Shown piece by piece: positions 31,477 through 45,238 of a DNA stretch of 52,423 nucleotides. The notes under the pieces are model-generated. The model was not told the origin of the DNA. It saw nothing but the letters and a program-made list of their open reading frames with translations, and did not search any database. The DNA lies in IMG/VR virus record IMGVR_UViG_3300020172_003900, positions 1 to 52,423 of that record. One strand, 5' to 3'. The stretch is from a virus (lineage: Duplodnaviria > Caudoviricetes). Every line of letters begins with the position of its first letter. Position 1 is the first letter of the stretch. The translations under genes and the position numbers were made by a program.

Positions 31477-31512
31477 CTCGATGTTTGTTATTTGTCTAAC
31501 TTAATCTTATCC

Positions 31513-31623
31513 TTAATTTGTTTCATCAACAACCGAACCAATAAATGCCATACGCGGATACCAACAGTTACTAAACTGTTTTACCACGTTAATAATCGAC
31601 ATATGTTGTTTATTAGTTCTCAT
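31513..31623 (-). CDS. Leader peptide 1 (36 aa) MRTNKQHMSIINVVKQFSNCWYPRMAFIGSVVDETN
   Basis: TACCTTTG promoter box at 31662-31669; 3' part contains antiterminator TTGGTTCGG; codons match array-1 anticodons. Confidence 0.75.
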   Translation of the reverse strand: MRTNKQHMSIINVVKQFSNCWYPRMAFIGSVVDETN

Positions 31624-31707
31624 TATTTCTAATTTTATTGTTGTTTTACTTATAACTATTACAAAGGTACAAAAAGTTTCCTGATTGTCAAATAATTTTC
31701 TGTTTTT

Positions 31708-33306
31708 TTATGCTCCGCCAGTATTTTTCTTATCAATATCCTTTGCGGCGTTCATTGCGTAGGATTTAGTTTGACCCTTAACATACTTACCAACCGCCTT
31801 TTTATTTGTTAGTTTAATATCAACACCTGTTTTCTCTTTAATCTTATCCGCTAAAGCATCCTCACCTTTATTTTTAGCAATATTCATCATCTCTTGAACT
31901 GTTTTATTACTACTTTGTTTTTTAATAAAATTATCGGTAAGTGTCTCAATTTCTTTTTTATGATTATTAATTGTTTGAACAACTTTAAGTTCTTCAGGAT
32001 TAAATGGTATTTTATTAATTGTTTTTTCGGCAATTTTTTCAAAGGTTGCCGAACCAATACCTTTAAGTGCAGGTATTTCGGATGCAAATGGTAAAACACT
32101 AAATGCCATTGTAAGACCAGCTTCGGCGTTTTTACCTTCTGAGAAATATATTGCAGAATCGGCAATTCCAAGACCTGCCGCTAATAAAGGTCCAACAAAT
32201 GGTATAAACATACTTGCAATTTGTAACCCTTCAATAACTTTGTGACCTTCTTCTGCAGTTAATCCTCCCCCAACACAAGTAGGTTTTGCTCTATCGTAAA
32301 CTCCCTTAATTTGGGAAGCATTTACCGAGTCGTAAAAAGACGCCATAAAGTTATAAACCCCTTCAGGGAAATATACGGTTGCATTATTATTTGTACTGGC
32401 AACTACGTCTTGTAATAATTTACCCCATTGAAAATAAAAATCGGATAGAATAAAGTTGGCATATAATGGAGTAATTTTATTTTTATTGTGTGTCCATATT
32501 GCAGATTGTGGATTATTTATTAAATCTTTTATTGAGGTACCATAAGATGTTAATTTTTTACTTACCATTTTAACATTACCTAAACTAGACAAACCTATTT
32601 GTAAACATTCTGTATTATTCCACCCAACTCTATTTGTTTGGATATCGGTTAAATATTTTATACTAAAAAGAGCGGCTAAGTTATAGTGTTGGTTAGGACT
32701 ACTTGGAGTTGGGAAAGTATATCCTCCAAAACTATCGACAATAAGTCCTTGTGATTTTAAGAATTGATAATTTTTTTGATATTCTGTACTTGTTTCATAA
32801 CAAGCCTTTTTACCTTTAGAATCAACATACTGACCGTTTTTAGAACAAGCCTCACTTCTTTCTTTCTTTTCTTTTTGCTCTTGCCAAGTTGCTAAGTTTT
32901 CCCAATAATATTGGTCTCCATATGATTTACCACATAAATTTTTAGATAGATAACCTGACAAAACTTTTGTTTTATCGTAAAACCAAGAATTTGCAGAACT
33001 ATTCCAAAACTTACCAGCGTTTTGACCGTCACAATAATAAACAGTTGATGGTTTTATTTTTTTACCAACAACTCTATCAACAGATGCGGTAAATGATGCT
33101 CCTCCTGTGGATTTATCTTTCTTATCTCCATATTGGTGAGCGGTGAATCTTGTTCCTTTAGGTATTTTAATTTGACCACCAAGCATAGTATTTTTAGTCA
33201 AAATTCTATCTTTAACTAACGTATACGTTTGATTAACAGGCTTATTAGTTTTAGTTGCCTGTTCAATAATACTTTTAAATTGATTTTCGGTAATGATTAC
33301 TCTCAC
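31708..33306 (-). CDS. Putative internal virion protein with C-terminal hydrophobic hairpin (PT-TG-like)
   Basis: GTG start; MRVIITENQFKSIIEQ propeptide-like; IASMFIPFVGPLLAAGLGIADSAIYFSEG. Confidence 0.55.
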   Translation of the reverse strand: MRVIITENQFKSIIEQATKTNKPVNQTYTLVKDRILTKNTMLGGQIKIPKGTRFTAHQYGDKKDKSTGGASFTASVDRVVGKKIKPSTVYYCDGQNAGKFWNSSANSWFYDKTKVLSGYLSKNLCGKSYGDQYYWENLATWQEQKEKKERSEACSKNGQYVDSKGKKACYETSTEYQKNYQFLKSQGLIVDSFGGYTFPTPSSPNQHYNLAALFSIKYLTDIQTNRVGWNNTECLQIGLSSLGNVKMVSKKLTSYGTSIKDLINNPQSAIWTHNKNKITPLYANFILSDFYFQWGKLLQDVVASTNNNATVYFPEGVYNFMASFYDSVNASQIKGVYDRAKPTCVGGGLTAEEGHKVIEGLQIASMFIPFVGPLLAAGLGIADSAIYFSEGKNAEAGLTMAFSVLPFASEIPALKGIGSATFEKIAEKTINKIPFNPEELKVVQTINNHKKEIETLTDNFIKKQSSNKTVQEMMNIAKNKGEDALADKIKEKTGVDIKLTNKKAVGKYVKGQTKSYAMNAAKDIDKKNTGGA

Positions 33307-33329
33307 ATATATAAATACTTTAAGAGTAT

Positions 33330-33860
33330 AAAAAAAGAAAGGTTCTAAATCATCCCCACGCCATTTTGGGAGAACCTTTCAAAGTTAAGTATATCTTGGC
33401 GACATAATATCCCACACCATTATGACTAAGATTTGTTAGCCCATAGTAACCATCCTTGGTGGGTTTCTACTCTCACACTCCGTCCATATTTACTAACCTA
33501 ATCGATGTGTCATAGATTTTCAGATATTGCGTTCAGTGTTACCCTCAGGACATCTTCACCCTACCCCCAAAGTTACGTGGCGAGTCTCACTCGGAAGCTG
33601 AGTGTGTATTGTAGAATTGTCCAGTATTTCTACAACTTGTGGATTGTATTACGACTAATTAAAGCCCCCTTACCCCCTCTATCCATAATGGGGAATCCTA
33701 TCTAACCTGTGTAGCCTCCCCCATAGCCTTGAAGCCTTCAAGTCAGGTTCACACACCATAACAGTCGGATATCTCTGTTAATCGTGGGGTCTTAAATAGA
33801 GTATGACGTATGCTCGTTTTATAGTTGTTTCCATCCGCAAACTCACGGTTCTCTCTATTT
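33330..33860 (-). ncRNA. Large stand-alone ncRNA (~520 nt), class unassigned
   Basis: Own promoter TTTG-N19-TACATTTG (33867-33897) and terminator GAAAGGTTCT/AGAACCTTTC plus U7; GC-rich, no sense ORF of 60 aa or more, many hairpins. Confidence 0.6.
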
Positions 33861-33900
33861 CTTTTACAAATGTATGGATTTTTTTTTAATCTTCAAACAA

Positions 33901-34485
33901 TTAAGATAAAAAAGACAAAACTTTTTCTTTAATTCCAGATTGTTTTAACCCTTCATTCGCGCTTGGAGTTAAGACAAAATTTTCTAATCCCCAATCGTGA
34001 GTAAACTTCATACCATAATACATACCTGTTTTACCCATATCAAGGTCATCTATTGAAACCCAATGAGTAACTTCGGGATGGTCGTGTAAGTACTGTTTAA
34101 TTTCAATTGTACGAGTTTGTTGTAAATCCCAATCTCTAGACCAAATAAAGTTATTTCCGTGTACCGTACATTCACTTAAATTAGGTGTAAAGGCGATTGG
34201 TTTTTTTGAAATACCTTTTGACTCATAGTACTCACCCATTTCCTCAACATTTGCCCATCTTTTCCAATCCGAAGATACAACAATCTCAGCACCAGTTTCT
34301 TCTAAAATTTTATTTAAAACTTTAACCGCCTTTTCGTTGAAGTTGTCAAATCTATACTCGATTGGCATACCTTTAACATCCATAGTAAGTTTATTACCTT
34401 CCCATTTTTGTCTTTTCTTGTAACGACCTCCCCACTCTGTGGATAAACAGATTACTCCGTCGTGGTCTAAAAATATAACTTTCAT
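33901..34485 (-). CDS. HAD-family phosphatase (Swiss-Army-Knife RNA-repair-like)
   Basis: IFLDHDGV, IVVSSDW, WVSIDD. Confidence 0.82.
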   Translation of the reverse strand: MKVIFLDHDGVICLSTEWGGRYKKRQKWEGNKLTMDVKGMPIEYRFDNFNEKAVKVLNKILEETGAEIVVSSDWKRWANVEEMGEYYESKGISKKPIAFTPNLSECTVHGNNFIWSRDWDLQQTRTIEIKQYLHDHPEVTHWVSIDDLDMGKTGMYYGMKFTHDWGLENFVLTPSANEGLKQSGIKEKVLSFLS

Positions 34486-34486
34486 A

Positions 34487-34654
34487 TTATTTTTTAATTA
34501 TATAACCTAAATTTTCAAAAATTAAAATCATCCCTACAAATGATAAGATAATACAAATTATCTTCATAAACAAATCTAAAGGTGTTTTTTTACTCCAAAT
34601 AACACCAAAAAAGAAAAACAATAGTGTTGCGATAATATTGAATATTAGTTGCAT
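34487..34654 (-). CDS. 55-aa two-TM membrane protein (not in track)
   Basis: MQLIFNIIATLLFFFFGVIWSKK...LGYIIKK; fills the gap between neighbours. Confidence 0.5.
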   Translation of the reverse strand: MQLIFNIIATLLFFFFGVIWSKKTPLDLFMKIICIILSFVGMILIFENLGYIIKK

Positions 34655-34659
34655 AGTTT

Positions 34660-35613
34660 TTATTTATTTATTAGGTCAAAGATACTAATTTTTTTGTAAG
34701 GTTTGTTAGGGATTATTGTAATTTTTTTAATTTTTTTCGATAATTCTACAGGGTCTTGGTTTGTTTCAAGATATTCTTTAATTAATGATTGTAATGGTTT
34801 TGCCAAACTATTATCAATATTAGTGTGAGTACAATTTGAAACTGCGTAATTTACAACTTTTGTCTTTTCTTTATTGATTGGGTAAGCGTTACCTCCTGAT
34901 AATAATTCTTCTTGGAATTCATCAATATCTCTAACATAATAATTTAAACACACTTTAACGTTAGATGGTATCATACAATTTAAAACTAACGTTTCTTGAA
35001 CTCTTCTAGTTTTATCCTTATACTGAGGGTCAATTGTTATTAACAAATCTACGTAAATATTTAAACTTTTAAGTTTTTCACAAGCTTTAATTAGATTATA
35101 AGAGCCTAAACTATGACCTAATAACACTACTTTACCGTTAGGATTTAATTGTTTGAAATAATAAACCTCTTGTATAATGTCTTCAGTTGTCAAAAGTAAA
35201 TTGTGTGTACCAGTGTAGGTAGATACGTGGGTACTATCATTAAAATATTTTTTTTCGATTTCACCTAAACCTGGAATATCTCTACTATCGTGATTTTCAA
35301 CCATTGTTTTATTTTTACTTAAAACATCTTCGTGAGGACTAACAAAAGTTCCTTGGGCAATAATAACTAAAGTGTTTTCACTCTTTTTGAGATAATTCAT
35401 ATCATACGGAGTTAGTTCAACTTTATTACTATAATAAGTTAACTTCATTTCGTGTGCGGTTATTAAAAACCCTAAAATCCCTAACAAAAATAATGGGATT
35501 GATTTTAATTTTAATTTGGTAACTTTAATTAAAAACACAAATAACACTAATGTTGCACATAGGTTAAATATTAATTGTGAGTGTACTAAGAAAGATGATA
35601 TAATTTCTGTCAT
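34660..35613 (-). CDS. Membrane-anchored alpha/beta hydrolase
   Basis: Two N-terminal TMs; VVLLGHSLG; ITIDP; THTNID. Confidence 0.7.
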   Translation of the reverse strand: MTEIISSFLVHSQLIFNLCATLVLFVFLIKVTKLKLKSIPLFLLGILGFLITAHEMKLTYYSNKVELTPYDMNYLKKSENTLVIIAQGTFVSPHEDVLSKNKTMVENHDSRDIPGLGEIEKKYFNDSTHVSTYTGTHNLLLTTEDIIQEVYYFKQLNPNGKVVLLGHSLGSYNLIKACEKLKSLNIYVDLLITIDPQYKDKTRRVQETLVLNCMIPSNVKVCLNYYVRDIDEFQEELLSGGNAYPINKEKTKVVNYAVSNCTHTNIDNSLAKPLQSLIKEYLETNQDPVELSKKIKKITIIPNKPYKKISIFDLINK

Positions 35614-35689
35614 ATTTGTTTTTTTATTTTAATTATAATAAAAAATTACAGTAAATAAATTATGGAAATGAGTTTGTTAGAATGTTTTG

Positions 35690-35763
35690 TAGTGACGATG
35701 GGATTTGAACCCATAACCTTGACCGTATAAGAGTCCTGCGCTCACCAATTACGCCACGTCACT
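35690..35763 (-). tRNA. tRNA-Ile(TAT)
   Basis: GACT-CTTATAC-GGTC; acceptor AGTGACG/CGTCACT. Confidence 0.8.
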
Positions 35764-35768
35764 ATATG

Positions 35769-35842
35769 TGGTCCCTGTAGGGTTCGAACCTACGACCCCC
35801 TGATTATGAGTCAGATGCTCTAACCGACTGAGCTAAGGGACC
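35769..35842 (-). tRNA. tRNA(CAT), probably Ile2 (lysidine)
   Basis: GGTCCCTTAGCTCAG...CTGACTCATAATCAG, resembles ileX-type tRNAs. Confidence 0.82.
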
Positions 35843-35853
35843 TAAATAAAAAA

Positions 35854-35953
35854 GTAGTCAGAGGTTGGTGGGACTATTACCTAGGGGCTAGCACCCGTTC
35901 CCTAATAATCGGTGGACACCGATTGCCCAAATTAGGTACACCAACTTGACTAC
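35854..35953 (-). ncRNA. Putative 100-nt structured RNA, ends similar to the 29100-29232 element
   Basis: GTAGTCA/TGACTAC and GTTGGTG/CACCAAC closing stems; AATCGGTG/CACCGATT hairpin. Confidence 0.5.
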
Positions 35954-35960
35954 AGATACC

Positions 35961-36131
35961 TTAGAACACTATTAAATCTCCGTGGCAATTATCCCACTCA
36001 TCAATCCAATTTCTAATTGGTTCAATATTAATGTTTTCGGTATCAAATCTCTCGACTTGAGTACCTTGTTCTTCGGTGTTAACTTTTTCAGTTATATTTT
36101 TATTTTCGTTTGGGTCAAATACATAATACAT
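35961..36131 (-). CDS. 56-aa hypothetical protein (not in track)
   Basis: MYYVFDPNENK...HGDLIVF; A-rich upstream. Confidence 0.4.
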   Translation of the reverse strand: MYYVFDPNENKNITEKVNTEEQGTQVERFDTENINIEPIRNWIDEWDNCHGDLIVF

Positions 36132-36153
36132 TTTATTTGTGTGGGTTTTTTTG

Positions 36154-36227
36154 AGCCTCCAGTCGGAATCGAACCAACGACCTGCTGATTACAAATCAGC
36201 CGCTCTGACCTGCTGAGCTATGGAGGC
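36154..36227 (-). tRNA. tRNA-Thr(TGT)
   Basis: GCTGA-TTTGTAA-TCAGC. Confidence 0.92.
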
Positions 36228-36240
36228 AATTACCATATAA

Positions 36241-36525
36241 TTATTTGATTTTCTTATATATGTAAGTTATAGTATCTCCGATTTTATAGATATCTGACCT
36301 ATCTGTTGAAAATCTTTGACCACACTCTGTTTTGTAGTAATACTTTGGAGTTAATTCGTTGATAGCGACAGGTTGTTTAACCCAAGAACTGTCAATCACA
36401 CACTTAACTACTTTATCACCAGGTTCAATTTTATTACGGTTTTCACATCCAACTAAAAAGAAGGCAACAAAACTAATCAATACGAACCAAAGAAGTGCTA
36501 ACAAGATAGGGATATTTTTTTTCAT
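36241..36525 (-). CDS. Small lipoprotein-like protein
   Basis: Hydrophobic N-terminus ending LVGC; TAAATTTG promoter box upstream. Confidence 0.6.
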   Translation of the reverse strand: MKKNIPILLALLWFVLISFVAFFLVGCENRNKIEPGDKVVKCVIDSSWVKQPVAINELTPKYYYKTECGQRFSTDRSDIYKIGDTITYIYKKIK

Positions 36526-36548
36526 ACAACAAATTTACAACATATTTT

Positions 36549-36797
36549 TTAAACCGCCAAATACTTAATTGAATTTTTCTTAATCCATTCAGGGTCGTGT
36601 TTAAACTCTTTCCAATTATCAAAATCTTTTAATTCTTCCAAAACCTCAATCGGTATTAAAGTAAATCCATCAGGAGCAATACCGTCAAATTTATGATACG
36701 ATGCGTATTCAATTTTTTCTTTAATCATTTGACAAAATAATTCATCATTAATAAAATTATTATGTTCTTGTTCTAAAAAGTCTTCGTTAGTATTCAT
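36549..36797 (-). CDS. Hypothetical protein
   Basis: Start moved to MNTNEDF to avoid overlap with tRNA-Arg. Confidence 0.55.
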   Translation of the reverse strand: MNTNEDFLEQEHNNFINDELFCQMIKEKIEYASYHKFDGIAPDGFTLIPIEVLEELKDFDNWKEFKHDPEWIKKNSIKYLAV

Positions 36798-36811
36798 AAT
36801 CAATTGATAAG

Positions 36812-36885
36812 TGACCTCGGAAGGATTCGAACCTTCGACCCACAACTTAGAAGGTTGTTGCTCTATCCATCTGAGCTACGAGGCC
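36812..36885 (-). tRNA. tRNA-Arg(TCT)
   Basis: ACAAC-CTTCTAA-GTTGT. Confidence 0.92.
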
Positions 36886-36890
36886 ATATT

Positions 36891-37067
36891 TTATATTTTT
36901 TTAATGTTATATTTATGACCTGAGTCTGAATTTAATTCAAATATTTTCCTCATTTGATTAGCCTCGTCCTCAGTCTCAAATTCCCATATCTCATTTTGAG
37001 AATTCAATATTATTACGGGCAATTCAACACCGTTTAAATTTTTAATAAATTTTATAATAACCCACAT
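36891..37067 (-). CDS. 58-aa hypothetical protein (not in track)
   Basis: MWVIIKFIKNLNGVELPVIILNSQNEIWEFETEDEA...; TACCTTTG promoter box near 37090. Confidence 0.5.
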   Translation of the reverse strand: MWVIIKFIKNLNGVELPVIILNSQNEIWEFETEDEANQMRKIFELNSDSGHKYNIKKI

Positions 37068-37116
37068 AGTTTTTTTGTTTCTTTCATTACAAAGGTACGG
37101 ATTAAATATGAATTAA

Positions 37117-37275
37117 TCAAATAAGTCCAAGTAAAATTAGTGATTTATGGATTAATAACAACATTAATATGAATACGCCAAAAATCACAGTATATCCAAA
37201 AACACGATTATTACCCATCACTTGTTTTTTTGAACGTCCTTGCCATTCATCAGAATCCCAATCATCATTACTCAT
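37117..37275 (-). CDS. 52-aa single-TM protein (not in track)
   Basis: MSNDDWDSDEWQGRSKKQV... then hydrophobic C-terminus. Confidence 0.45.
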   Translation of the reverse strand: MSNDDWDSDEWQGRSKKQVMGNNRVFGYTVIFGVFILMLLLIHKSLILLGLI

Positions 37276-37302
37276 ACCTATAAGTATTTAATTGTTTATT
37301 TG

Positions 37303-37374
37303 CGGTCCCACGGGGAATCGAACCCCGAACTCAGCCGTGACAGGGCTGCATTATAGCCGTTTAACTATGAGACC
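37303..37374 (-). tRNA. tRNA-Asp(GTC)
   Basis: CAGCC-CTGTCAC-GGCTG; G73. Confidence 0.92.
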
Positions 37375-37379
37375 TTTTG

Positions 37380-37452
37380 AGCGGATAGTGAGAATCGAAC
37401 TCACATCTTCAGCTTGGAAGGCTGAAGTAATGAACCATTATACGATATCCGC
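37380..37452 (-). tRNA. tRNA-Gly(TCC)
   Basis: TCAGC-CTTCCAA-GCTGA; U73. Confidence 0.92.
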
Positions 37453-37461
37453 TTATTATTG

Positions 37462-37534
37462 AGCGGTAGACAGGATTCGAACCTGCGACCCTAACCTTGG
37501 CAAGGTTATGCTCTACCAACTGAGCTACTACCGC
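37462..37534 (-). tRNA. tRNA-Gly(GCC)
   Basis: TAACC-TTGCCAA-GGTTA; U73. Confidence 0.92.
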
Positions 37535-37619
37535 GTTTAGATGAGTCGTGGACTTGTGTACCACTTTTGTCCCCCTTTAAATTATTCACTAACCCCAGGT
37601 GTAGGGAAACCCATCTTAG

Positions 37620-37694
37620 TTGCGGGGGCGGGATTCGAACCCACGTAGTTTGGCTTATGAGACCAAGCTGGAACCAACTCCAGTCCACCCCGCG
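37620..37694 (-). tRNA. tRNA-fMet-like (CAT), copy 2
   Basis: C1:A72 mismatch; TTGGT-CTCATAA-GCCAA. Confidence 0.8.
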
Positions 37695-37798
37695 ATATAT
37701 CTTTGTCATCACTTCGGCCACATCGTGAAAGCCGCCCCTCACGCGTTGTTTAAAGGAATCCGATTGCGGCCTCATCCTACCGAGTTATGATAACTTTG

Positions 37799-37871
37799 TT
37801 GCGAGAGGAGGATTCGAACCTCCGACCTCAAGGTTATGAGCCTTGCGAGCTACCACTGCTACTATCTCGCG
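37799..37871 (-). tRNA. tRNA-fMet(CAT)
   Basis: C1:A72 mismatch; CAAGG-CTCATAA-CCTTG. Confidence 0.88.
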
Positions 37872-37877
37872 ATGTTG

Positions 37878-37951
37878 TGGAGATGGTGAGAATCGAACTC
37901 ACCTCAGATTGATTGCAAATCAATCTCGTCGGCCTTGAGACATACACCCCC
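37878..37951 (-). tRNA. tRNA-Ala(TGC)
   Basis: ATTGA-TTTGCAA-TCAAT; G3-U70. Confidence 0.85.
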
Positions 37952-37957
37952 ATCATT

Positions 37958-38239
37958 TTAAACGTTGTACTTATCTCCTAATTTATTAATTAGGTCAAGT
38001 TCTTCGTTACTCATTCTATGATAAGAATTGGCAATTCTATCACAAAACATTCTGTGGTCTTTTTCCATCCAACCCATTTTAGTGTCTGACACTAAAATAG
38101 ATGTACTTGAGATATGACCGTCCTCGACCAAAGCTATAATAAGCTCTTTAAGTTCTCGAGGTGAACAAGCGGTTAAAAAGTCGTCAACACTAACTTCAAT
38201 TTCCGCCTCAACTTCCACATAATCCGAAAATTCTGGCAT
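37958..38239 (-). CDS. Hypothetical protein
   Basis: 93-aa ORF between tRNAs. Confidence 0.6.
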   Translation of the reverse strand: MPEFSDYVEVEAEIEVSVDDFLTACSPRELKELIIALVEDGHISSTSILVSDTKMGWMEKDHRMFCDRIANSYHRMSNEELDLINKLGDKYNV

Positions 38240-38259
38240 AATTATTTTTTTTTAGTTTG

Positions 38260-38331
38260 TAGTCCGTGCGGGAATCGAACCCGCCTTTTATCCGTGAAAG
38301 GGATATGTCCTAACCGATAGACGAACGGACC
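38260..38331 (-). tRNA. tRNA-Glu(TTC)
   Basis: TATCC-CTTTCAC-GGATA. Confidence 0.92.
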
Positions 38332-38346
38332 ATTTAAAATCTTTAA

Positions 38347-38377
38347 CAAAGATACAACCAATATTTCAAAGAACAAA
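38347..38377 (-). promoter_or_regulatory. boxA-like element overlapping a consensus Bacteroidota promoter
   Basis: TTTG-N19-TATCTTTG with GTTCTTTGAAA (38364-38374) inside. Confidence 0.55.
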
Positions 38378-38391
38378 ATTTAAAACTCATT

Positions 38392-38426
38392 AAAAACAAA
38401 AAACCCATCTCTTTTGGAGATGGGTT
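38392..38426 (-). terminator. Attenuator terminator of tRNA array 2
   Basis: AACCCATCTC-CAAAA-GAGATGGGTT-TTTTGTTTTT. Confidence 0.85.
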
Positions 38427-38450
38427 CAGTGAATTCATAGTATAGGAATA

Positions 38451-38525
38451 TCACACCATCTCCATTGGAGTAGTCGCTTCAGTTCTATCTGTCCCACCTA
38501 TTAGTATGATATGTAATGTTTTCAT
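38451..38525 (-). CDS. Leader peptide 2 (24 aa) MKTLHIILIGGTDRTEATTPMEMV
   Basis: Last codons contain antiterminator TGGAGATGG; codons match array-2 anticodons. Confidence 0.75.
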   Translation of the reverse strand: MKTLHIILIGGTDRTEATTPMEMV

Positions 38526-38586
38526 TTGCAGTTTTATTCGTTTTTTATTAAATATACCTATATAACGTAAAAAGTCAAATTTTATT

Positions 38587-40404
38587 TTAAAAATTAAATC
38601 CAAGTTTACCTTTTAATGGTTTAAGTTTAGTTTTATTATTAGTTTTATTTGGTTTTTCTATTGGTTTTGTTTCATCTCGTCTATTAATTATAACATCCTT
38701 ATTATTACCAACATCTACCTTTCTAACAATTTTATTATTAGAACTAAGTAAAGATAACACGTTTTGTCTAACATTATTATTTGAAATGTTAGTCTCATCC
38801 ATTTTAAATTCTACGATAGTCTCAGGTTTTAAAACTTTTTCCTCAACAGGTTTAATATATTTTTTAATCTCAGGGTTTTTAGAATCTAAAACTCTAACTG
38901 AACTTGTTTTGTCTAATTTTTTAATTACTTCACTAATATTATGACTAACAATATCTTTGTTTTTTATAATATTTTTATTATTTGTTTCATTATTTAATAA
39001 TTTTACATATGTAAAATCTAAACAATTATAAATTGGTTCGAAATGTGAAGTTTTTAATTCTTCTAATGGTCCAAAATATTTTTTATTTCTGGACAATTGA
39101 ACATATTCTTTTCTTAAATCTGATTTAAAATTTGTTTTAGGGTCACTAGTTAAACCTTTACTGTGAAGTCTCCTATAAAATAAAACAGATTTAGTTAAAT
39201 TTATTTTAACTCCATTTTTTTGTATTCTACCCATAAAGTCAGAGTCCGCGGCGCACCTCCATCCTTCAAATCCATTTAAGTTAAGAAAAATTTCTTTATG
39301 TATACCAAAAACCCCTTCACCCCATAAATTATTATCTTTTTTTGATTTAATATTTTCTAAATTAAAATCACCTGAAAAATTATAAAATTTTGGTTTAACA
39401 CATTCAAATTCGGATAATTTACTAATTATTTCATTAATCATAGTTTTATCCATAATATCATCTGAATCAAAAAATAATAAGTTTTTTGATTTTGAATATA
39501 ATGTTAAAGTATTTTTAATGACATAAGGTCCTACATTTTCTTTGAAATAATAAAATTTAATATGAGGATTAAACTTATTTTGATTAACATATTTTAAAGT
39601 ATTTCTACAACTATCTATTCCCACCAAAACTTCAAAACTTATACTATCACCGCAAGACAAAATAACTGAATCTAAACATTCTTTTAAAAACTCAACATTA
39701 TCGTATGTCGGAACAATAATACTAATTTTCTTATCGGTTAAAACATCATTTGTTAATACTGTTTGTTTTAAGTCTGATTTATATTCATTATTATAAATTG
39801 ATTCGTTTATCATTTGTTGGGTAACAAACCCTGAATTATGTCTTACACAAATAATATCTATATTATTTTCAATTGCATATTTACCTACCCAAACATCTGC
39901 CATATTAGGTTCCCTAAAATAATCCATATTTACTTTAAATAAATCAGTATGAAAAGCCATAACACCAGTCCCTCCAAATTGGACTTTAGTGTCTTTATTT
40001 AAAAGTTGGTTAAAATGAAATAATTGATTTTTATCCGAATAATAACTTTTTATGGGAGGGTTGTTAAAATTTCTTCCGTGAATTGTTATAAATGATTTAC
40101 GTTTATATTCCTCAATTTTACCTATCATATATTCAGAATAATTTTCTGGATATATTAAATCATCATCAATAGTGAAAAAGTACCCTTCAGAATTTATTAA
40201 ATTGTAAAATTTATAGGCGTCTCCTTTATCATTATCACTAATAAATAAATTAATTTTTTTATCAAATAATTCCACAGGAATTTCATCATAATCATTTAAA
40301 GTCAAATTGATTATGTCGCATTGATTATATATCGAATTAATAGTATTAATTAAAGTATCTGCTCTTTTGTAGCTCGCTATGTTATATATTACTTTGTCTT
40401 TCAT
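38587..40404 (-). CDS. Double GT-A (family 2-like) glycosyltransferase with low-complexity C-terminal tail
   Basis: FTIDDDLIYP; ISIIVPTYD...FFDSDD; start at MKDKV coupled to upstream stop. Confidence 0.82.
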   Translation of the reverse strand: MKDKVIYNIASYKRADTLINTINSIYNQCDIINLTLNDYDEIPVELFDKKINLFISDNDKGDAYKFYNLINSEGYFFTIDDDLIYPENYSEYMIGKIEEYKRKSFITIHGRNFNNPPIKSYYSDKNQLFHFNQLLNKDTKVQFGGTGVMAFHTDLFKVNMDYFREPNMADVWVGKYAIENNIDIICVRHNSGFVTQQMINESIYNNEYKSDLKQTVLTNDVLTDKKISIIVPTYDNVEFLKECLDSVILSCGDSISFEVLVGIDSCRNTLKYVNQNKFNPHIKFYYFKENVGPYVIKNTLTLYSKSKNLLFFDSDDIMDKTMINEIISKLSEFECVKPKFYNFSGDFNLENIKSKKDNNLWGEGVFGIHKEIFLNLNGFEGWRCAADSDFMGRIQKNGVKINLTKSVLFYRRLHSKGLTSDPKTNFKSDLRKEYVQLSRNKKYFGPLEELKTSHFEPIYNCLDFTYVKLLNNETNNKNIIKNKDIVSHNISEVIKKLDKTSSVRVLDSKNPEIKKYIKPVEEKVLKPETIVEFKMDETNISNNNVRQNVLSLLSSNNKIVRKVDVGNNKDVIINRRDETKPIEKPNKTNNKTKLKPLKGKLGFNF

Positions 40405-41165
40405 TGAAAATACTCTGGGTACCAATTTTTAAATTTTTCAACTCTCCCTAAATTCGGGGTTCTTTGTTTTATTTCAGGATTTGTTTCATAGAAAAAAATA
40501 TCCCATAATGAGCCAATGTCTATTAAAAAATTATCATTACCATAATGAGGAAATAGTTCATCTATAAATACGTTTGTCGCCATAGACGATGAGAATAAAA
40601 CTATATTATCTTTAGTTAATACTTTTTTAATTTCACTTAAAATTTCCTCTTTTTTCTCATAACAATTCAAGGTAGGAACTTCAATAAACTCCTTAACCTT
40701 TAAAAACTTAATTTCTGATAGGTATTTTGGACCAACAATAATTAAATTATTTTCATTTAGAGTTGATACAAATTTGTTAAATGTATTATGGTCATCCCTC
40801 ATACTATGTTGTAAGAAATCTGAATATTGATAAACTCCATTCATCAAATCATTCTCGACTAACAATTTAGTATATTCTTTAAGGTTATCGTCATCAATCC
40901 ATTCCCCCAAATATTGTATAAAGTATTTTTTACCATCACTATGGTTTAAACTTTCATTAAGTTCCTTCCCCATTTTTGGAAAATAATCGTGATTATCACA
41001 GTTTTTAACAGAATTAATTTCAACACCGTCAAGTTGTTTAATTCCACATATTAATTCCCCATCATTAAATCTTGAATATGAGAAGTACTCTTTGTTAATT
41101 ATTCTATTCGTAAAATAATCCATATCATAATTAACGTATTTATTTTTTTTAAAATCCTCTATCAT
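40401..41165 (-). CDS. GT-D-fold-like glycosyltransferase
   Basis: FSYSRFNDGE, LIIVG, LIDIGSLWD. Confidence 0.6.
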   Translation of the reverse strand: MIEDFKKNKYVNYDMDYFTNRIINKEYFSYSRFNDGELICGIKQLDGVEINSVKNCDNHDYFPKMGKELNESLNHSDGKKYFIQYLGEWIDDDNLKEYTKLLVENDLMNGVYQYSDFLQHSMRDDHNTFNKFVSTLNENNLIIVGPKYLSEIKFLKVKEFIEVPTLNCYEKKEEILSEIKKVLTKDNIVLFSSSMATNVFIDELFPHYGNDNFLIDIGSLWDIFFYETNPEIKQRTPNLGRVEKFKNWYPEYFQ

Positions 41166-41869
41166 TATTTAGCTATTAATTTTTCAGTTTTTCTTAACTC
41201 AGGAAGTAGTTTTGATTCGTGGTCTCCGTGAATTGTTAAGTTATTTATTACGTGATACATATTTAAATCTAAATTATATAATCGTTTACTAATTTGTTCT
41301 CCCACACCACTACTCAAATTAGGGTTTTTATCCCATCTTGATGGGTTTATTGGTAACATTTTAAACTCTAAAGATTTAAAAAAAGAATATTTACAAATAA
41401 ACACCAATTCACACCATTGTGTTTTATAATATTCATCATATTCTATAGGATATACTCCTGTCCATTTAGGTTGGTTTCTCTGACTGTCAATCATTAAAGT
41501 TCCTAATGAAATTTTAGTATCGTCAGGGATATTTTCAAAAATTCTAACACTTTCCTCAAAGAAATTTTCTTTTAATCTTAAATCATCTTGTAGGTAAACA
41601 TAATAATCGGCGTTAATTTTTCCGCAAAATTTAAAAGTGTCGTCAATAACTTTCCATAATTTTTTCAATCCATTGTTTTTTATGTATTTTATATACTTAA
41701 CATCATAATCCCCCAAATCATAAATGTCATTACTCGCATCATCAAAGACTACAACATATATTTTATAATTTTTATTTTTAAAAATGTCATCTAATAACAT
41801 CTTTAACATTTCTTGACGATTATGTGTGGTTATTACAACACAAAAATCATATTTCTCATCATTATTCAT
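41165..41869 (-). CDS. Glycosyltransferase family 2
   Basis: VVITTHNR, VFDDAS, YVYLQDD. Confidence 0.82.
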   Translation of the reverse strand: MNNDEKYDFCVVITTHNRQEMLKMLLDDIFKNKNYKIYVVVFDDASNDIYDLGDYDVKYIKYIKNNGLKKLWKVIDDTFKFCGKINADYYVYLQDDLRLKENFFEESVRIFENIPDDTKISLGTLMIDSQRNQPKWTGVYPIEYDEYYKTQWCELVFICKYSFFKSLEFKMLPINPSRWDKNPNLSSGVGEQISKRLYNLDLNMYHVINNLTIHGDHESKLLPELRKTEKLIAK

Positions 41870-42354
41870 TAATATAATATTGTAAATGTTTTATCATCAC
41901 AGTCTATTGAAAAAGTGATTCTTTTATCAAATTTTTCAGACAAAAATAAAGACATATTTTTATCATTTTCTCTATTAGTATCATCAATAATTATTGGTAT
42001 ATTTTTATTAAATATATCATAATGATTTATGATATTAATTCTATTTTCACCAATAGGGCCATCTATTAATAATAAATCGTATTCTTTAGGTAATTTATCT
42101 TTTAATATCTCAACATCATACCAACCATCAACTAACGGAGCGTGGATATAAGTTGATTCAGGTACTAAATCAACCCATTTAATATCGTGTTCTACACTAT
42201 AAACATTATAAAATTTTACTAATTCTTTAGTACCACCCCCACTACCTAATTCAAGTATTGTACTCCCTTTTGGTAAGTTAGACAATATCCAATCAAAGAG
42301 CTCTTTTGAGATTGACCATCCTCCGAATGATTCGTAGTTTACATCACTATTCAT
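41869..42354 (-). CDS. Class I SAM-dependent methyltransferase
   Basis: ILELGSGGGT, SVEHD, DLLLIDGP, IIDD. Confidence 0.8.
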   Translation of the reverse strand: MNSDVNYESFGGWSISKELFDWILSNLPKGSTILELGSGGGTKELVKFYNVYSVEHDIKWVDLVPESTYIHAPLVDGWYDVEILKDKLPKEYDLLLIDGPIGENRINIINHYDIFNKNIPIIIDDTNRENDKNMSLFLSEKFDKRITFSIDCDDKTFTILY

Positions 42355-42407
42355 TTAATTCTAATTCTTACTATAATTATAACTATAATTATTTGTAAAT
42401 CTATAAT

Positions 42408-43238
42408 ATGAAAAAAACAGTAGGAGTAGTAGGTAATGGATTTGTAGGTGAAAGTATTTCATTTGCTTTTAGTCCAACCTCAGAAGTTAAAATTTACGAC
42501 ATTAATCCATTAAAAAGTCTAAACACTTTAGATGAAGTTATGAAACAGGAGTTCATTTTTATTTGTTTACCAACACCAATGTTAAGTGATGGTACCCAAG
42601 ACATCTCATTTATTGAAGACTTTTTTGGTGATGTAATTTACAATGAAAATACCGTCTTCATTATCAAATCAACAGTACTACCAGGTACTACCGAGTCTTT
42701 AATTAAAAAGTACGGTCATAACATCGTATTTTCACCTGAGTTTTTAACTGAAAGGACCGCTAAGTTAGATATGTTAACACAAGCTAGAATTATTTTAGGA
42801 GGTGAACCATCTTTAACTAAACGAGTTGAGGAATTATTCAATGACCGTTTTATGAATAGACACATTATTCATACTGATTCTAAAACTGCTGAGTTTGTGA
42901 AATATATGAATAATACTTTTTTTGCAGCTAAAGTTAGTTTAATGAATGAATATTATAGACTTTCTAAATTAATTGGTGTAGATTGGGAAAAGGCGTTATA
43001 CGGATTTGCATCTGATGGTAGAATTGGAGATTCTCACTTACACGTTCCAGGTCCTGACGGTAAATTAGGATTTGGTGGTACTTGTTTTCCAAAAGACATA
43101 AATGCGTTAATATCGATGGCTTCTGAAGTAGGTTGTAATATGAATGTGTTAGAAGCCGCTTGGAAGACTAATTTAGAAGTTAGACCTGAACAAGATTGGA
43201 AAGAGTTAAAAGGTAGGGCAGTTTCTGAAAAAGAATAA
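42408..43238 (+). CDS. UDP-glucose/GDP-mannose 6-dehydrogenase (short form)
   Basis: GNGFVG, CLPTP, KSTVLPG, SPEFL, GFGGTCFPKD. Confidence 0.88.
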   Translation: MKKTVGVVGNGFVGESISFAFSPTSEVKIYDINPLKSLNTLDEVMKQEFIFICLPTPMLSDGTQDISFIEDFFGDVIYNENTVFIIKSTVLPGTTESLIKKYGHNIVFSPEFLTERTAKLDMLTQARIILGGEPSLTKRVEELFNDRFMNRHIIHTDSKTAEFVKYMNNTFFAAKVSLMNEYYRLSKLIGVDWEKALYGFASDGRIGDSHLHVPGPDGKLGFGGTCFPKDINALISMASEVGCNMNVLEAAWKTNLEVRPEQDWKELKGRAVSEKE

Positions 43239-43262
43239 TATTTATAAATAAAGAAAATCGTG

Positions 43263-43370
43263 ATGAATATGAAATCATTAAATATGGGTCTTTTAGTACA
43301 GGATTATATTACGTCGGCACTTTTATGTGTTCGAGGAGTGACCTTACGCGATTTAGATAAACAAAAATAA
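43263..43370 (+). CDS. Leader peptide 3 (35 aa, 7 Leu) MNMKSLNMGLLVQDYITSALLCVRGVTLRDLDKQK
   Basis: ATATTTAT motif upstream; contains antiterminator GTGACCTT; precedes HNH and two tRNA-Leu. Confidence 0.65.
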   Translation: MNMKSLNMGLLVQDYITSALLCVRGVTLRDLDKQK

Positions 43371-43399
43371 ATTAAACAGAAAAACTAAAACGTATAAAG

Positions 43400-43433
43400 A
43401 AAGGTCACAAGAAATTGTGACCTTTTTTGTTTT
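43400..43433 (+). terminator. Attenuator terminator of the tRNA-Leu locus
   Basis: AAAGGTCACAA-GAAA-TTGTGACCTTT-TTTGTTTT. Confidence 0.85.
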
Positions 43434-43464
43434 ATTGGAAAAAAATTATTAAATTTGCCAAGAT

Positions 43465-43968
43465 ATGGAAAGAGTGTTAGTATTAAATGCAGATTATACC
43501 CCGTTAAACGTGACATCCTCACAAAAAGGATTTAAACTCGTATTCAAGGGTAAAGCGGAAATCGTTAAGAGTTCCGAAAGTCCTATTATTGCAGGATACC
43601 AAAACTATGTGCGTCCATTAATCATCCGTCTATTCAAATACGTTAAATTTAGAGTTAGAAATATTCGGGTTAACAGACATAGGGTGTATAGAAGAGATGG
43701 TGGGGAATGTGTTTATTGTGGGTCAACAAAACAATTGACGTTAGACCACGTTATACCTAAATCTAAAGGAGGTTCTAATGAATGGACTAATCTTGTTACT
43801 TGTTGCCATAAGTGTAACCTCCATAAGGCAGATAGAACACCTCAAGAAGCTGGAATGGTACTACGTAAAAAACCTTATGAACCTTCATTGTTTATTGACG
43901 TGGTTAACAATTCGTTGGAAAGAATTTGGGAAGATTATAAAAATTCTTTCGGGGTGTTGACAGTTTAA
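43465..43968 (+). CDS. HNH endonuclease (McrA-like)
   Basis: VLVLNADY, RDGGECVYCG, TLDHVIPKSKGG, WTNLVTCCHKCN. Confidence 0.9.
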   Translation: MERVLVLNADYTPLNVTSSQKGFKLVFKGKAEIVKSSESPIIAGYQNYVRPLIIRLFKYVKFRVRNIRVNRHRVYRRDGGECVYCGSTKQLTLDHVIPKSKGGSNEWTNLVTCCHKCNLHKADRTPQEAGMVLRKKPYEPSLFIDVVNNSLERIWEDYKNSFGVLTV

Positions 43969-43979
43969 AAAATACGCCG

Positions 43980-44002
43980 TACATTTGTACTGTTCTTTGA
44001 AA
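43980..44002 (+). promoter_or_regulatory. Promoter -7 box plus boxA-like element for tRNA-Leu
   Basis: TACATTTG 43980-43987; GTTCTTTGAAA 43992-44002. Confidence 0.6.
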
Positions 44003-44010
44003 TGAAAATT

Positions 44011-44096
44011 GCTCGGGTGGTGGAATAGGTAGACACGCCAGACTTAAAATCTTGTGGGCCGTAAGGCCCGTGCGGGTTCGATTCCCGCCCCGAGTA
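44011..44096 (+). tRNA. tRNA-Leu(TAA)
   Basis: CCAGA-CTTAAAA-TCTTG; long variable arm; A73. Confidence 0.92.
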
Positions 44097-44099
44097 CTA

Positions 44100-44368
44100 T
44101 GAGTTAGAGATACTCAGAAAGATTGGTCACATTCTTTAAAAAAGTGATGGTAGTAAAAAAATCCTCGACCTTAATGGGGTTTCGATTCGGATAAAACGGT
44201 AGCAAGGTTCAGCACCGCCGACGTATTGAGCTGACGGGTTTTATGTGGTAAGACACTAATGAAAAAGACTTATTGAATGAGGTAACTATATAGGTTATCA
44301 AACAACTTTAAGGGATATGTTTCTTCAAAGAGAAAAGAAACCGTTAAAATCTACTCTCTGTAATCTCA
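44100..44368 (+). ncRNA. Putative ~270-nt structured RNA between the Leu tRNAs
   Basis: Ends TGAGTTAGAGA / TCTCTGTAATCTCA are complementary with bulges; no ORF in track. Confidence 0.35.
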
Positions 44369-44381
44369 GGAGGGGCCAAAT

Positions 44382-44461
44382 ATCAGAGTGGTGGAATTGG
44401 TAGACACGTATGCCTTAGGAGCATATGCTACGGCGTGAGGGTTCGAGTCCCTCCTCTGATA
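44382..44461 (+). tRNA. tRNA-Leu(TAG)
   Basis: TATGC-CTTAGGA-GCATA; A73. Confidence 0.9.
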
Positions 44462-44481
44462 CTAAATTTTAAAATTTAAAT

Positions 44482-45153
44482 ATGGATTACGGAAAAGAAT
44501 TTAAGTCGTATTACACGAAACACTTGTACAAACCATCAAGTAATTTGGATTATTATTCAAAACAGATTGAGAACTCAATGACTCCATATATTTTGGAAGA
44601 AAGAGAGATGAGAGCAACTCAAATCGATATCTTTTCAAGATTGATGAGGGACCGTATTCTATGGGTCGCTGGTGAAGTGAATGATAATATGTCAACAATA
44701 GTACAGGCACAATTAATGTTCTTGGACTCTGCTGACACTTCAGACATCACAATGCACATCGATAGTCCTGGAGGTTCTGTTAAATCAGGTTTAAGTATGG
44801 TTGACGTTATGGATTATATCAAATGTGATATTCGTACCGTAAACACAGGTATGGCAGCTTCAATGGGTTCAATTCTATTGGGGGCAGGTACCAAAGGTAA
44901 ACGTTCTTCATTGAGGTTTTCTCGCACAATGTTACATCAGTCTTCAGGTGGATTCCGTGGTAACATTCAAGATGCGGAAATCGATATGAAAGAATGGAAA
45001 AAGATTAACGATACTTTATTTGAATTGTTAGGTTCTTATTGTGGTAAGACCGCCGCTCAAGTAAAGAAAGATGCAAGTCGTGATTTATGGTTATCTTCAG
45101 AAGAGGCTTTAAAATACGGAATCATCGATGAAATCGTAAAAACTAAGAAATAA
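44482..45153 (+). CDS. clpP: ClpP protease proteolytic subunit
   Basis: DIFSRLMRDRI, IDSPGGSV, GMAASMG (Ser), MLHQ (His), RDLWL (Asp). Confidence 0.93.
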   Translation: MDYGKEFKSYYTKHLYKPSSNLDYYSKQIENSMTPYILEEREMRATQIDIFSRLMRDRILWVAGEVNDNMSTIVQAQLMFLDSADTSDITMHIDSPGGSVKSGLSMVDVMDYIKCDIRTVNTGMAASMGSILLGAGTKGKRSSLRFSRTMLHQSSGGFRGNIQDAEIDMKEWKKINDTLFELLGSYCGKTAAQVKKDASRDLWLSSEEALKYGIIDEIVKTKK

Positions 45154-45183
45154 AAAAAAGGAGGTCAAATGACCTCCTTTTTC
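45152..45183. terminator. Bidirectional terminator
   Basis: AAAAAAAGGAGGTCA-AA-TGACCTCCTTTTT. Confidence 0.8.
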
Positions 45184-45238
45184 ACAGGAAAAAAATTACC
45201 CCTCCTTTTATTTATATTTATTTATAATAAACAAGCAA

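Follow-up and report, generated by a model that had tools for sequence, protein, structure and literature searches.

A short ORF, a hairpin, and a boxA-type element precede a viral tRNA array

The stretch of DNA analyzed here, referred to as the window, is a 52,423-base part of the IMG/VR virus record IMGVR_UViG_3300020172_003900 (CheckV completeness, 17%) with a G+C content of 31.6%. It encodes a T4-type portal protein, a large terminase, and a prohead protease and contains 28 tRNA genes: 15 in array 1, 11 in array 2, and two for Leu on the plus strand. Ahead of array 2, the minus strand carries, in this order, a promoter (P1), an open reading frame (ORF) of 24 codons, a GC hairpin followed by a T run, a 17-mer, a TATCTTTG box, and tRNA-Glu (38331); the coordinates of these parts are given in Table 1. 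We call this arrangement the leader-2 module and its ORF leader 2, and a sister module with an ORF termed leader 1 lies ahead of array 1. The features of the module indicate that leader 2 is quite probably a ribosome-mediated transcription attenuator of the trp type that gates the phage tRNA array and is tuned to the tRNAs of that very array.

The codons of leader 2 are ATG AAA ACA TTA CAT ATC ATA CTA ATA GGT GGG ACA GAT AGA ACT GAA GCG ACT ACT CCA ATG GAG ATG GTG TGA. An earlier reading of this DNA, made from the letters alone (the sequence-only reading), had given the same codon string, and both the string and all of its coordinates for leader 2 are correct when the minus strand is read. Array 2 consists of Glu-TTC, Ala-TGC, CAT, CAT, Gly-GCC, Gly-TCC, Asp-GTC, Arg-TCT, Thr-TGT, CAT, and Ile-TAT, where CAT stands for the three tRNAs with that anticodon; two of these three have C1 opposite A72 and are initiator-like, and the third is fully paired.

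Relatives of the module were collected by searching IMG/VR for exact copies of the 17-mer, which occurs in at least 115 stretches. A tRNA on the same strand lies at most 150 nucleotides (nt) downstream in 50 of the 119 occurrences listed (the window's two included), and these fall into 32 distinct contexts, most of which, as listed, show the order promoter, short ORF, hairpin, 17-mer, tRNA. Twenty longer pieces from 19 records were mapped, and the window and 19 of the 20 pieces together hold 24 modules. Removal of six near-duplicates (L119, L135, L129, both modules of L126, and the copy of leader 2 in L125) left 18 nonredundant modules. The leader of L123 was added by hand, and the array of L132 ends at a contig end, as does that of L135 among the modules dropped. 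The relatives are uncultured, T4-like, mainly freshwater phages, for which CheckV completeness and length imply genome sizes of roughly 270 to 350 kb, with two outliers nearer 550 to 680 kb; G013 is rated complete at 270,865 bases.

Leader RNAs are predicted to form three exclusive pairings

The full leader-2 RNA folds with a minimum free energy of −34.8 kcal/mol (z = −3.47), and none of 200 shuffled sequences folded as well. In this fold, AUAUCAUACUA in codons 5 to 8 (region 1) pairs with UGGUGUGAUAU at the end of the ORF (region 2), and the terminator, formed by regions 3 and 4, stands separately; its hairpin (38427 to 38401) has 11 pairs, five of which are G-C. When the 3′ arm of the terminator is left out, UGGAGAUGG at the ORF end pairs with the 5′ arm of the terminator, which constitutes a putative antiterminator. 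The antiterminator duplex (positions −12 to +1 relative to the stop codon) was calculated at −17.3 kcal/mol, versus −14.0 kcal/mol for the terminator hairpin. Of these pairings, the sequence-only reading had seen 2:3 and 3:4. It had noted that TGGAGATGG (38464 to 38456) complements CCATCTCCA (38423 to 38415), and the match is indeed exact and lies in the 5′ arm of the terminator. It had also proposed that a ribosome reaching the stop codon would keep the antiterminator from forming, and this proposal gains from the energy difference just given and from the co-variation of the pairing in relatives (see below). The 1:2 pairing between codons 5 to 8 and the ORF end had been missed; once it is added to 2:3 and 3:4, the architecture of a trp-type attenuator is complete.

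Leader 1 follows the same switch logic. Its codons 2 to 5 (GAACUAAUAAA) pair with codons 27 to 30 (UUUAUUGGUUC) in a fold with a z score of −5.99, and the strand UUUAUUGGUUC is also complementary to an arm of the terminator.

A GC hairpin followed by a T run is present in all 18 modules (termination itself is predicted), and the terminator sequences are highly diverse, including CCATCTCC, CCCTCTCC, CCGAACCAA, CCTCGGACTACG, CCCTAACT, CCGATTCAA, and others. Co-variation was assessed by permuting duplex energies, since the spacers differ too much in length for a trustworthy column-wise alignment. The 2:3 duplex had a mean energy of −13.7 kcal/mol when the antiterminator strand was combined with its own terminator arm and of −8.8 kcal/mol with foreign arms, a difference reached by none of 20,000 permutations, and the own arm ranked first in 9 of the 18 modules. 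The antiterminator strand lies in the final 30 nt of the ORF or over the stop codon in 13 modules. For the 1:2 duplex, the corresponding means were −13.9 kcal/mol (own) and −11.1 kcal/mol (foreign), again with 0 of 20,000 permutations, and region 2 is joined to the N-terminal codons, with the terminator intact, in the most stable fold of 16 of the 18 modules. The leader peptides share just the start MKT..H[MI], because those codons are region 1.

A scan with Rfam 15 (cmscan, positions 27000 to 46000, E values up to 1) returned tRNAs and chance matches; it yielded nothing on 38395 to 38545 or on 31440 to 31655, and neither a leader family (Trp, His, Thr, Leu, and the like) nor a T-box was matched anywhere in the range scanned.

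Leader codons correspond to the tRNAs of the array that follows

Codons were assigned to arrays by standard wobble rules. Codons 9 to 19 of leader 2 are all decoded by array-2 tRNAs, and codons 9 to 17 include all eight of the array's non-Met specificities, which bears out what the sequence-only reading had claimed for this stretch. Among 100,000 random 24-codon ORFs drawn from the codon usage of the phage (38 long ORFs, 12,728 codons), none covered the eight specificities in nine or fewer codons, and 16 contained a run of at least 11 array-2 codons, as leader 2 does. Leader 1 covers all 14 non-Met specificities of array 1 within 18 codons, which lie inside a run of 22 array-1 codons; here, 0 of 100,000 random ORFs reached the coverage and 3 of 100,000 reached the run. 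As a control with real ORFs, 169 ATG ORFs of 20 to 45 codons in the six frames of the window were examined, and for each array a single one gave full coverage, namely its leader. The pair of leaders splits the codon set as the pair of arrays splits the tRNAs. A further claim of the sequence-only reading, that the codons TTA and CTA sample the two Leu tRNAs of the third tRNA locus, is unsupported, since these codons lie in or beside the stem-forming region 1 and TTA is variable, being ATA or ACA in the two nearest relatives.

The homolog comparison which that reading had suggested showed that codon sampling co-varies with array content in the 18 nonredundant modules. Recall, i.e., the fraction of array anticodons (CAT excluded) with a cognate codon in the leader, averaged 0.97 and was 1.00 in 15 of the 18 modules, compared with 0.73 for shuffled leader-array pairings. 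The precision of the leader codons was 0.64, compared with 0.45 after shuffling, and each of the two values was reached by 0 of 20,000 permutations. The correspondence depends on the reading frame: recall dropped from 0.97 in frame to 0.58 and 0.56 out of frame and to 0.57 on the opposite strand, with complete modules in 0 of 18 cases in each.

Individual relatives illustrate how closely leader and array go together (for run statistics of single modules, the codon usage of the window served as a proxy for that of the other phages). In L133, LSLHSSLSYLLSYH stands ahead of an array of Tyr, Ser, Tyr, His, His, Ser, Leu, Leu, and Leu tRNAs (run P of 5e-9), and in L136, NNIHISNRNQWYQPCFISS stands ahead of Ile, Asn, Tyr, Trp, Phe, Pro, Gln, His, Ser, Ile, Arg, and Cys (run P of 1e-7). 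L134 has TTADRTEAE ahead of a Glu, Ala, Asp, Arg, and Thr array; Gly is absent both from the tRNAs of this array and from the codons of the sensor run (one Gly codon occurs near the ORF end), while in leader 2 of the window GG goes with two Gly tRNAs. WYPRM occurs in leaders ahead of arrays whose first tRNA is Pro, and WYERM ahead of those whose first tRNA is Glu. In L137, a Phe tRNA is accompanied by two Phe codons, and its relative L120 is without either. In the complete genome of G013, all 25 tRNA matches form one array behind a single leader of 41 codons that contains all 20 amino acids.

It is conceivable that such an attenuator reads the general speed of translation or aminoacylation, as set by amino acid starvation, ribosome availability, or infection stage, and not the supply of tRNAs, so that its wide sampling makes it a capacity or timing switch for stable-RNA genes. 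The evidence from structure and ORF applies equally to a switch of this kind, leaders with 14 to 20 amino acids would stall under any elongation defect, and the single G013 leader with all 20 amino acids is what one would expect of it. The codon choice fits as well and speaks at the same time against a sensor tuned to tRNAs: a bias toward rare synonymous codons is absent, with 3,424 of 20,000 resamples at least as rare for leader 1 and 2,490 of 20,000 for leader 2. Yet a general sensor has no need to lose a codon when a tRNA is lacking, and the leaders do track their arrays. The sensor run of L133 comprises just Leu, Ser, His, and Tyr, Gly codons are missing from the run of L134A, Pro and Glu are swapped in step with the first tRNA, recall exceeds that of shuffled pairings, and the codon set of the window is divided as its arrays are. 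We consider a general translation sensor unlikely and retain tuning to the array's own tRNAs as the preferred interpretation.

The conserved 17-mer is found ahead of Bacteroidota 16S rRNA genes

The 17-mer, GTTCTTTGAAATATTGG, was found in exact form 75 to 220 nt upstream of the 5′ end of 16S rRNA in 18 of the 120 genomic matches listed, all of them Bacteroidota (Chitinophagales, Saprospiraceae, Sphingobacteriales, Cytophagales, and Flavobacteriales). None of the 120 matches listed in prokaryotic genomes has a tRNA within 150 nt. In its core, the 17-mer agrees at 10 of 11 positions with GYTCTTTAANA, the boxA consensus of gammaproteobacteria (PMC5725501). By its sequence and its place ahead of 16S rRNA, the 17-mer is a boxA of the Bacteroidota rrn type. 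At the deviating position, the boxA of Bacillus subtilis presumably has the same G. The identity with rrn leaders also provides a clue for host assignment, pointing to Bacteroidota as hosts of this uncultured freshwater group. In all 18 modules, boxA lies at most 111 nt 3′ of the terminator, in 14 of them ahead of the first tRNA and in 4 behind it. Within the window, boxA sites lie ahead of arrays 1 and 2, ahead of the Leu tRNAs (43992 to 44003), and, as a one-base variant, ahead of the transfer-messenger RNA (tmRNA).

Two side observations concern this element. Nine Bacteroidales/Bacteroidia matches located away from a 16S start (genome_contigs L160, L181, L196, L201, L212, L213, L216, L240, and L256) carry (T/G)TTACA(C/T)G after the 17-mer, which may represent a further conserved boxA context. 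Flavobacterium phage vB_FspM_immuto_3-5A (MW353176.1) was considered as a carrier of the module and rejected, as an upstream leader ORF or terminator was not seen; it has a boxA-like GTTCTTTGAAA 12 nt 3′ of tRNA-Cys and 5′ of three more tRNAs (20246 to 20354) and could serve as an accessible model, though just for the boxA part.

Two putative promoters and an RNA contig across the terminator

P1 is a Bacteroidota-type −33/−7 promoter whose −7 box matches at 7 of 8 positions; it can alternatively be read as TTGACT-16-TATATT, a sigma-70-like match. The TATATTTA box is found at the equivalent place in the relatives L125, L126, L128, and L129, and a promoter-like box 5′ of the ORF is visible in the sequences of the relatives (uncounted per module). 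Bacteroidota-type promoters are enriched in the window, with 13 observed versus 3.6 expected. Between 27500 and 45500, neither sigma-70-type promoters (92 observed versus 80.5 expected) nor terminator-like sites (12 versus 9.8) are enriched.

Past the terminator, the perfect TTTG-N19-TATCTTTG to which the sequence-only reading had drawn attention is present (candidate promoter P2, Table 1). That reading had recognized the promoter pattern and suggested that it could bypass the terminator; the conserved 17-mer in its spacer had gone unrecognized as boxA. A bypass is plausible: a TAnnTTTG −7 box stands exactly 9 nt 3′ of the boxA core GTTCTTTGAAA in 9 of the 18 modules, and the full TTTG-N17-21-TAnnTTTG pattern spans boxA in 10 of the 24. 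The recurrence of the box at this fixed distance makes a second promoter likely in about half of the modules, including that of array 2, and since transcription from P2 would start downstream of leader and boxA, the resulting transcripts would contain neither. Array 1 lacks this arrangement. There, the T run of the terminator abuts boxA and leaves no promoter space in between (an overlap with leader or terminator is possible), so that boxA probably enters the RNA when polymerase that started at the leader promoter reads through.

A 192-nt contig from a lake metatranscriptome corresponds to 38244 to 38435 with 0 differences and comprises tRNA-Glu, boxA, and the whole terminator; two more near-identical RNA contigs lie between array-2 tRNAs. 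Depth in this RNA run is zero over 31794 to 33275 and 34017 to 35745, long coding stretches included, which argues against an evenly spread carry-over of DNA. Contigs of the run give no cover over 38463 to 38700, where the leader ORF lies, and as contig data this is uninformative either way. RNA that is continuous across the terminator does not derive from a start at P2 (∼38340), and the contig thereby argues against the scenario which the sequence-only reading had itself named as refuting it, namely that all array-2 transcripts start at the downstream promoter.

The same data bear on the view that the ORF is a small gene like any other or else a spurious frame, that the hairpin ends an upstream unit, that the array is transcribed from the downstream promoter only, and that codons and tRNAs match by descent. 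The perfect P2 motif past the terminator and the −7 box in half of the modules are in line with this view, small ORFs are common within arrays, and the shared N-terminal MKT..H[MI] could be that of a conserved peptide. Against it, the match between codons and tRNAs is frame specific and goes beyond chance within one genome, and the peptides diverge while complementarity to their own terminators is retained. The conserved N-terminal codons are precisely those that pair with region 2, array 1 offers no gap for a promoter that would place boxA in the RNA, and the RNA contig crosses the terminator. An ordinary small gene is thus improbable as an explanation of leader 2.

Proposed mechanism and its weak points

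If leader 2 is a trp-type attenuator, transcription would begin at P1 (∼38542), and the short ORF would be translated as RNA polymerase proceeds. When the sampled tRNAs are plentiful, the ribosome would reach the stop codon and cover region 2 or, once it is released, region 2 would re-pair with region 1; with region 2 covered or engaged in 1:2, the 3:4 terminator would form and transcription would end ahead of the array. When any sampled tRNA is scarce, be it through a mismatch between phage codons and host tRNAs, host shut-off, or a tRNA-cleaving defense, the ribosome would stall in the sensor stretch (Ile-AUA, both Gly, Thr, Asp, Arg-AGA, Glu, and Ala). Region 1 would then be melted or covered, possibly by queuing ribosomes, and region 2 would be released to pair with region 3, so that no terminator forms and polymerase reads through. 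The read-through RNA would carry the host-type boxA and presumably recruit NusB/S10, making polymerase termination resistant across the long, untranslated, and highly structured array. New phage tRNAs would relieve the stall and close the loop, and the second promoter of the module could furnish a basal supply of boxA-less transcripts. We infer translation of the ORF, stalling, Nus-factor binding, feedback, and the cause of tRNA depletion. Beyond the single module, and with somewhat less assurance, we favor the view that uncultured, T4-like, large phages of Bacteroidota gauge the decoding capacity of their host tRNA by tRNA, using a translated test strip that evolves with the array, and that a stall opens the attenuator and passes polymerase to the host's rRNA antitermination.

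Several points weigh against this interpretation. Translation of the ORF, termination at the hairpin, and the response of read-through to tRNA levels are predictions. The terminator-spanning contig is a single one, with a depth of 4.4 and from an RNA library that possibly contains DNA, and the 16 nt that separate its end from the ORF leave a start at P1 unproven. The modules are related by descent, and the permutation P values overstate their independence (the Monte Carlo results within the window are unaffected). The antiterminators of L132 and L136 are weak. Unlike in trp, where they are in region 1, the sensor codons lie mainly in the loop between regions 1 and 2; a stall in the middle of this loop would keep 1:2 apart by steric hindrance or queuing. 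As to codon sampling, for about a third of the codons in the leaders, the array of the module supplies no decoding tRNA (precision of 0.64), and 3 of the 18 modules miss at least one tRNA. Counterexamples are L121, which is without an Asp codon, and L134B, which misses 2 of 18 specificities; L127 appears to be decayed, as a stop truncates its ORF ahead of region 2 (recall of 0.67, precision of 0.26). The run statistics give little support for L122 (0.086) and L127 (0.38), and for L130 they carry no information. Finally, array 2 contains internal promoter-like sites at 37121 to 37090 and 36561 to 36530. Much tRNA transcription may bypass the attenuator via P2 or these internal sites, and the attenuator may supplement a basal supply instead of governing all expression of the array.

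An RNA-only switch, in which leader triplets pair with the anticodons of phage tRNAs in the style of a T-box specifier and without translation, would account for the match between triplets and the anticodons of adjacent tRNAs and for the terminator/antiterminator pair in which T-box leaders also end, yet it is highly improbable given that the 19-kb Rfam scan found no T-box or leader family at E values up to 1, that the triplets are contiguous, in one frame, and bounded by ATG and stop in 18 of 18 modules, that the conserved bulge which binds the tRNA acceptor end was not seen, and that a single RNA would need to bind up to 22 different tRNAs.

Other features of the window

The coordinates of the leader-2 module, of its sister module, and of both arrays are collected in Table 1.

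TABLE 1 Features of the two leader modules and tRNA arrays, with a lipoprotein-like ORF of three relatives
Feature	Coordinates	Strand	Description
Promoter P1	38549-38579	Minus	TTTG (38579-38576), 19-nt spacer, TATATTTA (38556-38549)
Leader-2 ORF	38451-38525	Minus	24 codons plus TGA, MKTLHIILIGGTDRTEATTPMEMV; ATG 38525-38523, TGA 38453-38451
Region 1	38502-38512	Minus	AUAUCAUACUA, within codons 5-8; partner is region 2 in the lowest-energy fold
Region 2	38448-38465	Minus	Last four codons, stop codon, and 3 nt further
Intrinsic terminator, regions 3 and 4	38395-38427	Minus	5′ arm 38427-38417, loop 38416-38412, 3′ arm 38411-38401, T run
boxA-type element	38358-38374	Minus	GTTCTTTGAAATATTGG; presumed NusB/S10 site in read-through RNA
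Candidate promoter P2	38347-38377	Minus	TTTG-N19-TATCTTTG; TATCTTTG box 38354-38347; spacer contains boxA
Array 2	35689-38331	Minus	11 tRNAs, regulated genes in the proposed reading; small ORFs interspersed
Sister module, array 1	31420-31692	Minus	Promoter 31692-31662; terminator 31479-31448; boxA 31436-31420; tRNA-Pro 31407
Leader-1 ORF	31513-31623	Minus	36 codons, MRTNKQHMSIINVVKQFSNCWYPRMAFIGSVVDETN
Array 1	28490-31407	Minus	15 tRNAs, including Trp-CCA found by Rfam only
Lipoprotein-like ORF, L121	5094-5255		Oriented coordinates of the relative
Lipoprotein-like ORF, L123	3703-3882		Oriented coordinates of the relative
Lipoprotein-like ORF, L124	4917-5090		Oriented coordinates of the relative

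A third leader-like locus extends over 43269 to 44462 on the plus strand. It begins with an ORF (43269 to 43370), MKSLNMGLLVQDYITSALLCVRGVTLRDLDKQK, that contains seven Leu codons (five TTA and two CTT), and GTGACCTT inside this ORF pairs with the 5′ arm of a terminator at 43397 to 43428 (−13.1 kcal/mol). An HNH endonuclease gene with its own promoter (43465 to 43965, plus strand) separates the ORF from the boxA at 43992 to 44003 and the two Leu tRNAs, and the locus has the look of a module interrupted by the insertion of a homing endonuclease. The second HNH endonuclease gene at the tRNA loci lies inside array 1, in the gap between tRNA-Asn and tRNA-Trp (30341 to 30886, minus strand). In array 2, the gene at 37619 to 37694 (minus strand) received the label "???" from ARAGORN and scored no more than 34.2 bits with Rfam. 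Its anticodon loop has CAT, C1 faces A72, and the D region seems enlarged; the gene possibly specifies a second initiator-like tRNA of an unusual kind.

A tmRNA gene is located at 18949 to 19336 on the plus strand (RF00023, 86.5 bits versus a gathering score of 47; unreported by ARAGORN). It is preceded by a Bacteroidota-type promoter (18898 to 18929) and by GTTCTTTGAAAA at 18934 to 18945, which is boxA-like with one base changed. At 19462 to 19626 (plus strand) there is a small lipoprotein-like ORF that starts with MKK and has a Cys-Gly-Gly lipobox-like motif and a tail rich in Thr, Ser, Val, and Asp. In the window and several relatives, an ORF of this kind, together with a strong terminator, recurs right 3′ of tRNA arrays or the tmRNA (Table 1).

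Near the arrays, genes of RNA-repair type are found at 22567 to 25024 and 33904 to 34485, both on the minus strand. They encode a metallophosphoesterase and a T4 Rnl1-type RNA ligase (PF09511) as well as, in the stretch that separates arrays 1 and 2, a HAD domain known from RNA-repair proteins of the "Swiss army knife" type (PF18143), suggesting that tRNA damage by host defense belongs to the life of the phage. Along with the tmRNA, these genes fit the theme of translation under attack; they are no proof regarding the switch. Genes for a ClpB-like double AAA ATPase (14887 to 16908) and a ClpP protease (44482 to 45150) lie on the plus strand.

A blastn search with 37900 to 40500 against 50,697 phage records returned tRNA-sized matches only, and one with the L118 leader returned no match; in the search for cultured relatives, the best match of the portal protein had 39% identity. 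The stretch is present in 18 DNA runs, mostly freshwater and from several studies (the 20 rows holding it come from 8 studies), and, in small part, in one lake metatranscriptome. Three runs have a DNA variant at 38496, GGT to GGC, which is synonymous and read by the same tRNA.

Significance and comparison with known systems

The reason why phages carry tRNA genes is much debated, and the control of these genes is almost unexplored. Phage tRNA arrays have been viewed as compensation for codon usage or as a counter to defenses that target tRNAs. We know of no account of these arrays that includes a cis-regulatory device measuring tRNA supply. A full-text search of the literature on attenuation, leader peptides, and the arrays, operons, or clusters in which phage tRNA genes lie, judged by listings and abstracts and with subscription-only papers and supplements outside its scope, brought up no description of such a module. 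If our reading is correct, this would be, as far as searched, the first leader-peptide attenuation of tRNA genes and the first attenuator to read up to 20 amino acids. The module would amount to a virus-encoded homeostat for tRNA supply, plausibly a direct countermeasure to host shut-off or tRNA-cleaving defense, and it would supply a testable mechanism by which phage tRNAs are made in answer to a shortage felt by the ribosome. Attenuation would thereby be extended from biosynthetic operons to the decoding machinery, from one or a few amino acids to a complete set of tRNAs, and from cells to viruses. The rule that leader codons predict array content can be checked on thousands of metagenomic phages, and short ORFs ahead of tRNA arrays merit annotation as regulatory leaders. 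As a compact natural sensor of translation speed over many codons, the module might also be reused in synthetic biology.

Leader-peptide attenuators of the trp, his, thr, and ilv operons (the Escherichia coli trpL type) control amino acid biosynthesis. The phage module resembles them in having its own promoter, a short ORF with regulatory codons, exclusive 1:2, 2:3, and 3:4 pairings, an intrinsic terminator, and a decision that would depend on the position of the ribosome, and it shares with ilv and thr the reading of more than one amino acid. It differs in that it would regulate tRNA genes and not biosynthetic enzymes and in that its leaders contain one or two codons for each of 8 to 22 tRNA specificities, where the known leaders repeat one or a few amino acids; moreover, it is viral, is followed by boxA, and has its sensor codons mostly between regions 1 and 2.

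Aminoacyl-tRNA synthetase genes are controlled by attenuation at pheST (the pheM leader) and by T-box leaders. In these systems, as would be the case in the phage module, a component of the decoding machinery is tied to the state of cognate tRNA through a terminator/antiterminator switch. However, they govern synthetases and read one tRNA species, and T-boxes bind uncharged tRNA without translation, whereas the translated frame of the phage would read many tRNAs and govern the tRNA genes themselves.

The boxA element links the module to rrn antitermination, which operates through boxA with NusB, NusE, NusA, and NusG, as well as SuhB: in both, boxA is in the leader of stable-RNA genes, and the phage element is identical to the one upstream of 16S rRNA in 18 Bacteroidota genomes. 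As at the nut sites of phage lambda, a phage would use the Nus machinery of its host (Nus binding is predicted here). Unlike in either system, boxA lies behind a leader-peptide attenuator and ahead of tRNA arrays and a tmRNA, and an N-like protein or boxB is not evident. Like other large phages, this one has a near-complete set of tRNAs, here together with an RNA ligase, an RNA-repair HAD domain, and the tmRNA. The class of mechanism is a known one; what is new, as far as our searches show, is that it targets tRNA genes, samples so broadly, is coupled to boxA, and belongs to a virus.

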